A stretch of DNA of 63,896 bases, counting the filler. It is 11 parts of 11 records of this genome, joined end to end, with 100 filler letters (N's around TTAATTAATTAA, not from the genome) between each part and the next. Parts side by side here need not be neighbours in the genome. Positions count along the whole stretch, not along the records: positions 14,103 to 26,066 come from SRR7504441_1973; 10 more parts are not named here. One strand, given 5' to 3'. The translations under genes were made by a program, and so were the position numbers. Positions 16,459 to 25,931 of this stretch are shown here, in pieces (within the stretch, counting starts at the first letter, position 1; every line of letters starts with the position of its first letter). The notes beneath the pieces are model-generated. The model was given only the letters and a program-made list of their open reading frames with translations, was not told the DNA's origin and ran no database searches.

Positions 16459-19400
16459 ATGGGTTCGTGCAACTCGACCGAGGAGCCCATTTCACGAAAC
16501 GAGCTGCCGTCGAGCTCCCCCCAGTCGACCGAGATCGACCTCACCATCAAGACCACCACTGGCCGCGGGGTGAGGCTCCATCTGCCGGACACTTCCACCG
16601 TCGCCGAGACGCTCCAGCTGCTCGGGTCCAAGGCGCGAATCGACACATCGAGGCTACGTCTGCTGCTGGGTGACCACCGGCTGGACATGAACGCCGCCCT
16701 GCGCGACTACAACATCCAGCAAAACGCTAGGCTCTACTGCGTGCTCCAGGCAACTGCTCCCAAGCCCAACCAGACAGCCGAGGCGGTACGGCTTGTACCG
16801 CGCTGGTGGCGACTTGGCGGGCACAGGAGGCTCCGGTAACAGTTCGAGTGTTTCGAAAGGACGGCGAGAAGAGCGAACTGGAGATCCCGCTGGACGTGGC
16901 GAGCTGCACCGCGGGGGAGCTGAAGACCAGGCTGGTAGAACGCCTGGGCTCACCCGAATCGTCGATGCAGCTCATCCTTGGTGCCCAGCTGGAGCCCCTG
17001 CGCCTAGCCGGGTGGGCAGGTGGCCGGACCGTGGACGACGGAGCTATCCTTGCCGCGTGCCCTCTCTACCACCAGGGAGCCGTCTTCTGCCTATTCATCC
17101 ACGCCGGCCCTGCGGCGTTAATCCGAGTCGCGTCTTCCCGCGCTGTGCAGGGCGCCATCCCGCCGGATTGCATGTGCTTCACCATCAGCCTAGAAAGCAC
17201 CGAACCTCCAGAGTATCCAGAGGCCACCCAGCCGATCGAATATTTCCAAACAGAGGACCCTGTGCTCGCGCTGCTCAACCGACTGCCCCCTTTGCCGCAG
17301 GCTGCGCTGCCCGAGGATCCAGATGGGTTCGACAGCTTTGAGGATTTGGCTGGCGAACTGGCAGCCCTGGAGGCTGTCGACCTCTGTGAGCCTCTGCCTC
17401 AGGCCGAGCTGGAGCGGATGGAGAAGCTTCCGCTTCGCGTGACCCGTTGCTCCCCCGAAGGCGAGTTGGCAGACGCCCGGTGCACCGTGACGGTTAAGTT
17501 TTCGATGCCGATGGTGAGTAGCTCAGTGTTTGAGTCGGAGCAGGCAATCCAGCACGGCGATAAGTACCTGAGCATCAGCCCCGCCAGCGCAGTGCTAGCT
17601 CTTGAGTACAGCTGGCTCGATGTGAGCACCCTCCAGCTCGAACTTGAGCTCGAGCCCTCCTCGACTATCAACTGCATAGTGCCGGCTGGCCTGGAGTCTG
17701 CCGAGGGCAACGTGCTCCGGGCTCCACACACTTGGCAGTTCAAGACTCAGAGAGTCCAGCTGGCACGGACTGAGTGAGACTGCTCACCCTGCCATGGCGG
17801 TGACATGTGGCTGGGCAGGTGCATGTGTGGGCCTGGTATGCTTGACAGAGCGCTGCGAGTCTCGTTTACACAAGCAGTCGAGCGGAGCTCTGTGGCAGGT
17901 TGTATCCAGATTTATTGCAGGCCCCGGGACCAGGGCGACTGCAATGACGTCGGAGCGCACGTGACCGATCATACCGGAATCGAGGTGGACAAGGAGCAGG
18001 CACCTGAGGAGCAGGTCTTGCAGTTTGAGGTCCTCACAGAGCAGGAGGCGGCCCGGTCCGGAGGCTGGCTTGGGAGCACTGCCGACAGGAGGTTGAGAGA
18101 GGAAGACGAGTTCAACGGGCGATGGCAACACAGCCCTGTGGTGCTCAAGCTAAGCGAGACTCTCCCGAAGAACAGTGTCGTTCGAGCAGTCTTCTCTCCT
18201 GGGCTGAAGCCAAGCCGAGGCGATTTGCTCAGCCTCGAATGGCGCTGTCTCACAGTAAAGACCTATGCGCCACTCCAAGTGACCAATCGCTCAGCTTTTG
18301 GGGCATGCAATTATACCGAGAACTGTCCGGTCCGGTTCAATAACCAGATAAAAGCAACTGCGTTCCACCCGGGGCAGGTCATGTTCAGCCCATGCCAGCC
18401 AGAGCAGCTGTACGACAACTACAACAAGCGCTACATCCCAGTAGTGAGAGATTTCGACTCGGATAGCAAGCAGATCCAGCTGCAAGGAAGATTTGAGACC
18501 TCACCATTCGAGTATGAAATCTGTCTGATGCCTCAAATCGAGGACGAGTATGGCCAACAGCTTGGTGATTGCGAACCTCTGCTAATAAACATGCAAGCCA
18601 AGCCAAGCCGCGTGGATCCTGTCTACTCCGCCTGTTTTTCACACAGCACACACAGCTTCAAAACGTTCAGTGGTGCAGTGGTTGGTGACAGCGTCTCGAT
18701 GACTGCTGCTAGACACAAGTTCAGGCATTTGAAGACTGTAAACCTTGAGACAATCAAACTCCAAGTGAACCGTGTTGACCCTTCGCAGCATCTGAAGCAA
18801 TTCTCCTTCTTCAGGAAGCAGCGGCTGCAGGTATCTCAGTGCCCTGGGGAGCTGGTGCTTGCGAAGGAGGTGGATGTTGGCATGGAGGCGCCCAGTGAGC
18901 TCCCTGCAGGAGACACAAAGATTGTAGTGGCCAATCAATTTTCACCAGCGGACCCGGAATATGATGAATATGTTGAACAGACTGATCTGGCGCACTGCAC
19001 ACTGGCTCAGCTGGTCGATGTCATTGCATTCCAGTGTGGCTGTCATCCATCTCACCTGGACCTGTATTGGGGCGAGGAGACGCTCACCTGCCACACGGAC
19101 CACGACACAATGAATCAGTCCCTTGAGGCAATTGGACTCTCGCAAATAGGTGGGGTGATTCGTCTCCGGTGTGAATATCCAGACAACTATCAGGTGACCT
19201 TTGGACAGAACAAACGAGTGATGACTCCGATCGATATTGACCAGCTTCTAGCTGATGCAGGCATGATGCCACATGATCACCTTGTGGTGTGCGTGTCGGC
19301 TGGAGATACATACCAAGACTCGCCTCTCGGAGGTTATGATGCTCCAGAGGCAGTGGTCTGGTTCCAGTCATTTGATACACATGTGATGCTGGCGTCAGAC

Positions 19401-25400: not shown

Positions 25401-25931
25401 TTTTGGGAGCAGCTGTGGCCACGCGAGCTGAAGATTGAATACCCGGTGCTTGCGAGCACCCCTGGCCGGTTCTTCATGCCTCCTTGCCACGCTGAGGAGA
25501 TGTACGCCGAGGAGTGCTACGGTCGGTGTGCCACACAGGTGGTGATGGTAGTAGACGAGCAGCAGCTGTATGACCTGCGCGTCCACGATGGCTTGCTTGA
25601 GGTCTGCGTGTTCTCTGATGGCCACGTGATAGAGCGTTTCAAGAGGCAGCATCCTGGTGGGCAGACTACTCTGGAAGAGCTGCGGCTACTTGCCTGGGAG
25701 GAGAGCGATATTAAGGTCAAGCTGGAGGAGCTCGGGCTGGAGGGTGTGGACGAGCTAGAGCATCTGTTGCTGTTTGGAACCTTTGAGAAGGCGGATGAGG
25801 CCGAGGAAAACGAGATCACGGATGGCGCCCCAAGCTCGTCAACGTTGCAGTCGGTGGGAATCGTCGACCAGGTATACGTCTTGTTCCCACACACTGCACT
25901 TAGCTACTCGGATGATTCGCACGACTACTAG
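16459..25931 (+). CDS. Bacterial-type alpha-2-macroglobulin with inserted ubiquitin-like domains and a Hint-ubiquitin cassette in the bait region (~2,950 aa; 3' end may extend to ~26031)
   Basis: A single frame is obtained by removing introns 16786-16826, 16981-17019, 17774-17818, 21590-21629, 21748-21792, 21835-21875, 22230-22271, 23280-23323, 23558-23596, 23688-23737, 23842-23888, 24039-24077, 24357-24398 and 24558-24596. A2M motifs: [114 protein letters not shown] and [16 protein letters not shown]. Confidence 0.9.
21814..22319 (+). other. Hint (intein-like) domain, ~141 aa, split by two introns
   Basis: Block [14 protein letters not shown] (Cys codon 21814-21816), block [10 protein letters not shown], block [17 protein letters not shown] and block G VVHN. 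No endonuclease insert. Confidence 0.92.
22320..22547 (+). other. Ubiquitin moiety embedded in the A2M (Lys replaces Met1)
   Basis: [76 protein letters not shown]; 70/76 identical to human ubiquitin by manual comparison. Confidence 0.97.

Follow-up and report, generated by a model that had tools for sequence, protein, structure and literature searches.

A bacterial-type A2M of a marine microbial eukaryote with a Hint domain and a ubiquitin at the bait position

The window analyzed here is a 63,896 nt stretch of DNA made of 11 parts joined with 100 filler letters, parts lying side by side not necessarily being genome neighbors. Its plus strand carries a gene for a protein of the alpha-2-macroglobulin (A2M) family, in which a Hint domain and a ubiquitin are found at the position of the bait region. 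The coding span (16459..25931, model A) comprises 15 exons and 14 introns and yields a stop-free protein of 2957 aa, in agreement with the roughly 14 introns counted in an earlier interpretation of the DNA letters (hereafter the sequence-only reading). All introns of the model measure 39-50 nt and have GT-AG or GC-AG ends. Seven of them were confirmed by spliced RNA joints and forced in the model (23280-23323, 23558-23596, 23688-23737, 23842-23888, 24039-24077, 24357-24398, and 24558-24596; five GT-AG and two GC-AG, allowing for ambiguous joint bases), and frame-keeping introns of like size were chosen elsewhere. Introns 21835-21875 and 22230-22271 are backed by a gap-free alignment with P0152, a relative from the protein database, and the other five are based on frame and splice signals. 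The linker preceding the Hint domain can be spliced in two ways (Table 1), the three-intron option giving a 26-nt and a 7-nt exon; the frame is preserved in either case, and no domain is affected. RNA evidence came from three marine metatranscriptome runs, belonging to one study and at most two samples, whose contigs align over 22188-26036 at 95-100% identity. No contig of the three runs fell on 15500-22187, which is no evidence that the 5' half is silent. The locus represents an intron-rich nuclear gene that is transcribed in a marine microbial eukaryote.

Pfam annotation recovered, in this order, ubiquitin-like, Big_5, MG2, A2M_BRD, Hint, ubiquitin, A2M, and bMG10 domains. A profile built from 18 bacterial A2M open reading frames (ORFs) gave six colinear matches to the window protein, the best of them at 1.3e-30 and 5.1e-23. 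The motifs from which the sequence-only reading had deduced a bacterial rather than animal pattern (RxxPxG..FSxPMV, DRxLYxP, HVALVDxLPAGxE, and AEEMY) are all present and fall on conserved bacterial blocks: R..P.G...FSMPMV at 17445-17516 and DRKLYKP at 19689-19709 lie on the matching blocks of the profile, as do a conserved block of the MG10 region at 25293-25331 and AEEMY at 25491-25505. The same pattern emerges at the profile level, with colinearity to the bacterial profile, a bacterial-type MG10 domain, and best matches among Patescibacteria, and Pfam found no animal receptor-binding domain (A2M_recep) at E<=0.01 and neither an ANA nor a C345C domain. For one segment, E. coli YfhM scored E=0.024 against 0.41 for human A2M, sequence similarity to the structurally solved bacterial A2Ms being marginal, and the nearest Atlas clusters are bacterial (0.88), which counts as a lead only. 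The MGSCNS start and the thioester Cys are located where the sequence-only reading had placed them, and the latter lies in a CxEQ motif, predicting a thioester. The window protein certainly belongs to the A2M family and, judged by its domain content, is of bacterial type, possessing the complete series of macroglobulin (MG) array, bait-region domain (BRD), MG7, thioester domain (TED) with CVEQ, and MG10.

The bait of this protein is where a feature missed by the sequence-only reading is located. Model residues 1686-1928, consisting of a short linker, Hint, and ubiquitin, take the position of the bacterial bait, which covers about 38 columns of the profile (1238-1276). Thus, instead of a short unstructured bait, two folded domains extend over aa 1714-1930. 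The Hint domain starts with Cys1 (codon 21814-21816, CFVAGT), contains TGNH at 22056-22067, and ends on VVHN with the Asn codon at 22317-22319; its coding span is cut by the two introns backed by P0152. The N-terminal Cys, TxxH, and the C-terminal His-Asn are present both in the window protein and in P0152, and in both the Hint is followed by a Lys at +1 and lacks a Cys, Ser, or Thr nucleophile at this position. Among solved structures, the P0152 Hint came closest to the C. thermocellum BIL 2LWY (3.7e-14) and Tetrahymena BIL2 (6Y75/6TMM, 1.4e-13), with the catalytic His and the C-terminal His(-Asn) aligned in these matches. According to excerpts of PMC4031507, type-A bacterial-intein-like (BIL) domains carry His-Asn without a +1 nucleophile. 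They generate a thioester at their N-terminus and are cut at the C-terminal Asn, after which the released amine is able to rejoin the flanks, though cleavage products predominate. By its residues the bait Hint is a catalytically complete type-A BIL of predicted activity.

Ubiquitin begins immediately after the Hint Asn without any spacer, a Lys replacing Met1. Of its 76 residues, 70 equal the consensus of 354 polyubiquitin units, the exceptions being positions 1, 19, 23, 25, 26, and 57, with K48, K63, L8, I44, and LRLRGG all present. Two of the deviations, Lys1 (3/354 units) and Gly19 (18/354 units), are common to the window and P0152 ubiquitins. On these grounds the domain is a true ubiquitin and not merely ubiquitin-like. 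Gly76 is followed by another Gly in both proteins, and what follows the ubiquitin is the conserved beginning of the second MG6 half. The joining of Hint, ubiquitin, and MG7 is not an artifact of the gene model, because the Hint C-terminus, ubiquitin, MG7, and thioester are all encoded in the single exon 22272-23279, within one ORF (22257-23348). Since the bait region is occupied by Hint and ubiquitin, the expectation as to the likely trigger of this A2M changes.

P0152, a database protein of 503 aa, is a fragment devoid of the N-terminus and 64% identical to the window protein over the MG7 part. Its single ORF runs without interruption from the BRD end through Hint and ubiquitin to MG7, with junctions like those of the window protein (GGG/CFVKGT...LRLRGG/G, the Hint motifs being TAGH and LVHN). 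The two proteins are identical at 21/50 positions in the BRD end, 70/140 in the Hint, 71/76 in the ubiquitin, and 101/173 after the ubiquitin. The bait ubiquitin appears to be under constraint, because its identity stands at 71/76 against 70/140 for the Hint and 101/173 for the flanking A2M, with LRLRGG intact. AlphaFold2 prediction of P0152 without an alignment was unusable (mean predicted local distance difference test score 32.5), and P0152 had no usable match in the Protein Atlas.

A further protein, P0001 (4235 aa), is leaderless and A2M-like, with bMG10 and many Big_5 repeats. It was the only match, at 22% identity, among 1734 candidates in a search of longer proteins with the 1270-aa exon. 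Its bait is an acidic, low-complexity stretch of ~370 aa, and the thioester Cys is replaced by Tyr (IPYEYTEQ). In a quick tree it joins the pair of window protein and P0152 on a long branch (SH-aLRT 87). P0001 is a probable eukaryotic relative and may indicate that bacterial-type A2Ms form a wider clade in eukaryotes. Searching longer proteins with the Hint exon returned none of 116 candidates, a result of little weight, as P0152 was missed too. The 150 matches listed for the exon with Hint end, ubiquitin, and MG7 were multi-repeat ubiquitin proteins, which outscored all else, and NCBIfam, applied to four exons and P0001, yielded an intein C-terminal motif (0.0087) and a ubiquitin-caused Rad23 match only. 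A metagenome scan with the window MG7-to-thioester segment, which reaches close relatives only, revealed no close eukaryotic relative; its 10 loci were all bacterial, at 24-28% identity. A degenerate junction pattern had 0 matches in genome contigs and 0 in viral contigs.

Thioester proteins such as A2M, complement, and insect thioester-containing proteins serve in extracellular or periplasmic defense and are triggered by proteolysis of the bait. An export signal, as carried by the bacterial-type A2M family, was not found in the window protein. Its first 60 aa are polar (top Kyte-Doolittle 10-residue mean 0.86; mean of the first 25 aa -1.14), and hydropathy of the N-terminus gave no sign of a signal peptide, whereas 14/18 bacterial A2M comparators have an N-terminal 12-mer hydropathy >1.9. 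No transmembrane segment was seen in the 2957 aa either, the top 19-residue hydropathy being 1.71. In addition to the bait ubiquitin, the protein has a ubiquitin-like domain at its N-terminus and another one within the TED, whose flanking introns have RNA joints, and two weaker candidates (Table 1). For these assignments, a profile of 245 ubiquitin units served as hhalign reference, against which three control segments score 0.2-0.3%. Further ubiquitin-like candidates at aa 800-890, 2828-2915, and 2900-2957 were dropped with hhalign scores at background. Because there is no leader and no transmembrane segment, and because of the extra ubiquitin-like domains, we infer that the window A2M works in the cytosol. 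An intracellular location had been proposed by the sequence-only reading from the MGSCNS start and the lack of a signal peptide; the ubiquitin-family domains give it support beyond that original argument.

N-myristoylation typically calls for a Met-Gly start followed by residues that are small or uncharged, with Ser/Thr as residue 6. The N-terminal MGSCNST matches this consensus with a Cys nearby, and the protein is possibly held at membranes by N-terminal acylation. The ATG at 16459 stands in a strong start context (ACCATGG), with an in-frame stop upstream at 16327 and no in-frame ATG between the two. To our knowledge, all characterized members of the A2M family are extracytoplasmic, and one may therefore ask whether an unseen upstream exon, or unconventional export, places the protein outside the cell or on its surface, where it would act on extracellular proteases. 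Besides this precedent, the lack of RNA cover at the 5' end and an acceptor-like GTGCAG ending 8 nt ahead of the ATG would allow for it. It is nevertheless very improbable: the 600 nt upstream contain no leader-like ORF, the three short ATG ORFs there having a top 10-residue hydropathy of 0.54, and the upstream stop, the start context, the ubiquitin-like N-terminal domain, and the ubiquitin bait all speak for a cytosolic protein. Just upstream of the gene start, the stretch 15920-16110 is AT-richer and packed with short TACG/GTACG-like repeats (GC 0.49 in 14001-16000), possibly a promoter or an intergenic repeat.

Table 1 Features of the A2M gene in the window, in order along the plus strand
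Feature	Position	Strand	Evidence and remarks
N-terminus MGSCNS	16459..16476	+	candidate N-myristoylation (Gly2, Ser6) and palmitoylation (Cys4) motif; motif match only
Ubiquitin-like domain 1 (aa 28-97)	16540..16749	+	exon 1; Pfam ubiquitin 1.6e-9; hhalign 96.7%
Candidate ubiquitin-like domain 2 (aa ~113-200)	16836..17099	+	weak: hhalign 29%, hmmsearch independent E-value 0.13
First macroglobulin-type Ig domain (Big_5), with RCSPEGE...FSMPMV block	17430..17747	+	Big_5 4.2e-5; bacterial profile 33-167
MG2 domain (DRKLYKP block)	19680..19967	+	Pfam MG2 0.0033, below curated cutoff; bacterial profile 659-853
Candidate ubiquitin-like insert in MG array (aa ~1350-1455)	20592..20909	+	weak: hhalign 9.8%
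A2M bait-region domain (BRD)	21177..21584	+	Pfam A2M_BRD 2.6e-12; bacterial profile 1177-1238
Uncertain linker splicing	21630..21792	+	three tiny introns (21630-21670, 21697-21740, 21748-21792) or one 163-nt intron; read from sequence
Type-A bacterial-intein-like (Hint) domain (aa 1714-1854)	21814..22319	+	Pfam Intein_splicing 9.7e-11, PT-HINT 1.1e-10
Ubiquitin, 76 aa, KQIFVK...LRLRGG	22320..22547	+	Pfam ubiquitin 1.4e-31, profile positions 1-72 of 72
A2M domain (MG7)	22599..22865	+	Pfam A2M 2.4e-16; RNA contig over 22588-23148
Thioester motif YPYTCVEQ (predicted thioester)	23244..23267	+	Cys codon TGT 23256-23258; aligns with bacterial YPYTCVEQ block
Ubiquitin-like domain within TED (aa ~2437-2501), split by intron 24357-24398	24285..24521	+	hhalign 86.7%; hmmsearch independent E-value 6.5e-6; Pfam ubiquitin 0.013 on second half
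Bacterial-type MG10 domain	25131..25514	+	Pfam bMG10 1.8e-20; covered by RNA contigs
C-terminal extension, ~120 aa past the bacterial A2M profile	25560..25928	+	no Pfam match at E<=5; hhalign against ubiquitin at background, 0.1-0.3%

The C-terminal extension was also addressed by a PDB search with the C-terminal exon, which gave nothing below E=0.2.

Bacterial counterparts were sought with the window MG7-to-thioester segment in 301 genomes of one phylum, the Patescibacteria (candidate phyla radiation, CPR). A2M matches were obtained in 28/301 genomes (best 88.9 bits, 32% identity), and at 12 of these 28 loci a Hint lies immediately upstream, at the same bait site; two further such loci were identified outside the sample. 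Scanning prokaryote genomes with a degenerate BIL N-terminal motif gave at least 120 stretches, among them at least six loci in which a Hint sits inside an A2M ORF, between the BRD and the post-bait blocks. The flanks of the bacterial bait Hints are stereotyped (GGG/C...HN/[Q/D/E]-K-G), with Lys at +2 in 17/17 (among loci L145-L174, L035, L036, and L090), and Hint-less CPR A2Ms read ...SKGGGGG...R.F.DTAYW at the bait. No ubiquitin was found at the bait of the bacterial A2M loci examined. As far as these sequences go, bait Hints recur among CPR A2Ms. Loci L038 and L070 lie in metagenome-assembled genomes (G001 and G002; 1.2 and 1.7 Mb) whose records are titled 'uncultured Gammaproteobacteria'; G002 draws the same 301-genome phylum sample as the Parcubacteria genome G005 and hence belongs to Patescibacteria by the taxonomy of the collection.

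The A2M part of the window protein is most similar to the A2Ms of Patescibacteria. In phmmer comparisons, window aa 1931-2260 scored 114.8, 113.6, and 103.4 bits against Hint-less CPR A2Ms, 78.2 and 68.2 bits against Hint-bearing ones, and at most 59.5 bits against 18 non-CPR A2M ORFs collected by the YPYTCVEQ motif that they share. Before tree building, 12/50 bacterial loci with <150 aligned positions were left out. A first quick A2M tree of 40 rows grouped the eukaryotic pair with two long-branch rows at a support of 18 and was rebuilt; the final maximum likelihood tree is unrooted and contains 35 rows, the long rows L010, L022, L169, L156, and L165 having been dropped. It resolves a non-CPR clade (100/100), a CPR clade (98/96), and the eukaryotic pair (99/95), the latter positioned beside and not nested in the sampled bacterial clades. 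Horizontal acquisition of the A2M, put forward in the sequence-only reading, is plausible, with a donor that the trees do not resolve. Similarly, a FastTree analysis of Hint sequences (110 rows, 138 columns) gives no resolution on a descent of the eukaryotic Hint from A2M-bait Hints. In this tree the eukaryotic Hint lies nearest to BILs of unrelated proteins (L075, L065), and pairwise it also scores highest with non-A2M BILs, at 73.7 bits versus 27-57 with A2M-bait Hints.

Hint presence is patchy on the CPR A2M tree and requires at least three changes. Such patchiness speaks for the module being a passenger, that is, a Hint, inherited or mobile, and a ubiquitin residing in a tolerant surface loop, with the Hint splicing out and A2M function independent of both. 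Bait loops do tolerate large inserts, as exemplified by the ~370-aa acidic insert of P0001. We nonetheless regard a passenger as improbable, given that both proteins retain the module, with all Hint catalytic residues and a ubiquitin at 93% identity, although their flanking A2M parts are only 42-58% identical. Moreover, a Hint that splices out would still leave ubiquitin as the bait.

The Lys residues behind the Hint bear on another possibility, which starts from Tetrahymena BUBL proteins. In excerpts of PMC8616854, BIL2 has a ubiquitin-like domain on either side; it makes an isopeptide with Lys, and its N-flank becomes conjugated to substrates in an ATP-independent manner. By analogy, the +1 Lys of the window protein, or a lysine of another protein, might attack the Hint thioester of the N-chain, resulting in an isopeptide-branched product or in ATP-free conjugation of the 1700-aa N-chain, a second covalent warhead beside the TED thioester. 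The eukaryotic Hint is as close to BIL2 as to bacterial BILs, the Lys that replaces Met1 in both eukaryotic proteins is rare among ubiquitin units, and all 17 bacterial A2M-bait Hints have their Lys one position further on. However, the conjugated N-flank in BUBL is a ubiquitin-like domain, and here it is an A2M BRD ending in DAA or GGG. Unrelated BIL proteins, too, often show a Lys behind the Hint (15/91 rows), which may only mirror the BIL subfamily. We regard conjugation of this kind as distinctly improbable.

At a rough probability of 0.4, we favor a cytosolic thioester protein in which the Hint performs self-processing and a cut after Gly76 of the ubiquitin acts as trigger, a mechanism that we infer from the domain arrangement. 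The C-terminus of ubiquitin is the defining substrate of deubiquitinases. Following translation, the Hint would form a thioester at Cys1 and cleave at its C-terminal Asn, leaving either two chains held together via the split MG6 or a chain religated via the +1 Lys amine; in both cases ubiquitin would remain as the bait. A ubiquitin-specific protease cutting after Gly76 (LRLRGG/GG) would then open the bait, and the opened bait would release the thioester, by analogy with other A2M and complement proteins, for a covalent bond to the protease or to anything nearby. Such a trap or tag would answer deubiquitinase activity and not ordinary proteases. In an excerpt of PMC13069473, the bait region domain is described as inserted in MG6, with bait cleavage triggering a conformational change.

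Several observations weigh against this proposal. Thioester formation is assumed from the motif. In the three runs, no RNA covers the 5' half, including the exon with the N-terminal Hint junction. Conservation of the module refers to two sequences, as P0152 was the sole close relative recovered. Many Patescibacteria A2Ms hold a Hint at the same bait site free of ubiquitin; this domain could be no more than an inheritance, with a role that may have nothing to do with ubiquitin. A contig from run X1 (depth 6.8) is one base short at window 23520; in that molecule the frame would shift 12 codons ahead of the exon end, and strain variation, an assembly error, or a defective copy could be the cause. 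Finally, endogenous deubiquitinases normally cleave linear ubiquitin fusions quickly, and the cut after Gly76 may for this reason be constitutive maturation rather than a regulated trigger.

Taken to its end, this last point means that the Hint self-excises, housekeeping deubiquitinases strip the ubiquitin, and the cassette does nothing but convert the protein into two chains, a step for which C3 and C4 depend on furin, and the actual trigger or function lies elsewhere, for instance in a scaffold bearing ubiquitin-like domains. The predominance of cleavage products in type-A BILs, as excerpted from PMC4031507, fits such a course, and so do the Gly following Gly76 in both proteins and P0001, whose missing thioester Cys implies that thioester-independent roles exist in the wider group. 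Yet bait cutting itself triggers the change in A2Ms, so that constitutive removal would discharge the conserved CVEQ thioester, and the ubiquitin is near-invariant over its full length, beyond what a cleavage site needs. Maturation alone is therefore rather unlikely as the full explanation, and a regulated cut after Gly76 remains the reading that we favor.

A more elaborate version of deubiquitinase triggering would amount to complement-like covalent tagging in the cytosol, with a deubiquitinase as the "convertase". Here, the Hint would autocatalytically make a two-chain precursor, a role played by furin in C3, and ubiquitin would cap the new chain like the anaphylatoxin domain on the C3 alpha chain. 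A deubiquitinase, in particular one from a virus or an intracellular bacterium, would remove the ubiquitin and the thioester would fire, and the acyl-anchored protein with its ubiquitin-like domains would become fixed to the intruder or enzyme as a mark for autophagy or degradation. As a joint claim, this sequence of steps is unlikely.

Elsewhere in the window, 2 kb downstream of the A2M gene, an ORF on the minus strand (27768-29204) encodes a zf-UBP domain (5.2e-14) and a biotin-protein-ligase N-terminal domain. The zf-UBP zinc finger binds the free C-terminus of ubiquitin, and free ubiquitin might be set loose from the A2M gene product; the proximity may be coincidence. A 1335-aa open frame at 55126-59130 (+) lies where the skew toward purines and toward A over T is extreme (AT skew 0.25-0.42, GC skew ~0.1); it has a Glu/Lys/Ala-rich start and no Pfam match. 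Other long ORFs encode a leucine-rich repeat protein (6899-10147, +), a protein with an FGE-sulfatase domain (3886-5316, -), and a right-handed beta-helix protein of 1835 aa (34380-39884, -). Ten paired 44-N blocks, 12 bases apart, recur every 3-9 kb (3579-3678, 10311-10410, 14003-14102, 26067-26166, and six more) and look like traces of masking or scaffolding, not like biology; one pair is located 135 nt past the stop codon of the A2M gene.

Among the papers listed by full-text searches, none combined A2M or macroglobulin with Hint or intein and ubiquitin, or a macroglobulin bait region with a deubiquitinase, and none dealt with Patescibacteria A2Ms with a Hint in the bait. The A2M family itself is known; new are the probable cytosolic setting and the Hint-ubiquitin bait. 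The window protein would represent a complete thioester protein in the cytosol of a protist, its bait replaced by a self-cleaving Hint and ubiquitin. If true, complement-like covalent tagging, intein chemistry, and ubiquitin signaling would be linked in one molecule, and ubiquitin as bait would constitute an innate-immune logic not known from any thioester protein. The protein would likewise be a natural deubiquitinase-activated covalent trap, also of interest as a tool. On a broader scale, a Hint in the bait is common among Patescibacteria A2Ms, and the self-processing bait may be a general, apparently undescribed A2M variant, the eukaryotic protein being a derived form.

With bacterial A2Ms (E. 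coli ECAM/YfhM, Salmonella SaA2M, and the CPR A2Ms), the window protein shares the colinear MG array, BRD, MG7, TED with CxEQ, and MG10. Bacterial A2Ms differ in having hydrophobic N-terminal leaders, no ubiquitin or ubiquitin-like domains, and a bait that is either a short Gly-rich loop or a Hint alone. Hedgehog and other eukaryotic Hint proteins also rely on an N-terminal Cys for thioester formation at the peptide bond ahead of it (Pfam Hint 3e-6), but the window Hint is without the sterol-recognition region, and its His-Asn and best matches point to type-A BILs and mini-inteins. Tetrahymena BUBL is alike in that a eukaryotic type-A BIL/Hint directly adjoins a ubiquitin-family domain. In BUBL, ubiquitin-like domains lie on both sides and the N-side one is conjugated, whereas in the window protein the N-flank is an A2M BRD, the C-flank is a true ubiquitin, and the module is found inside a thioester protein.

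The nearest printed precedent, going by an excerpt of Elias and Novotny 2008 (PMC2430557), is the A2M-like protein DdiCPRas2 of Dictyostelium, a COG2373/A2M homolog with an inserted circularly permuted Ras GTPase. DdiCPRas2 and P0001 are, like the window protein, giant protist homologs of bacterial-type A2Ms, and the insert of DdiCPRas2 is a module of cytosolic type. They differ by a GTPase or an acidic low-complexity bait, neither holding a Hint or ubiquitin. Among animal proteins, C3 carries in its bait-equivalent loop a two-chain processing site and, at the N-terminus of its alpha chain, the small anaphylatoxin domain, which a specific protease removes to arm the thioester; intracellular C3 is reportedly also under discussion. 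In an analogy with C3, C4, and C5, the Hint would be responsible for the two-chain state, with ubiquitin as the domain to be removed. The window protein differs from these by its MG10 C-terminus, and its processing would be autocatalytic, with a deubiquitinase as activator.

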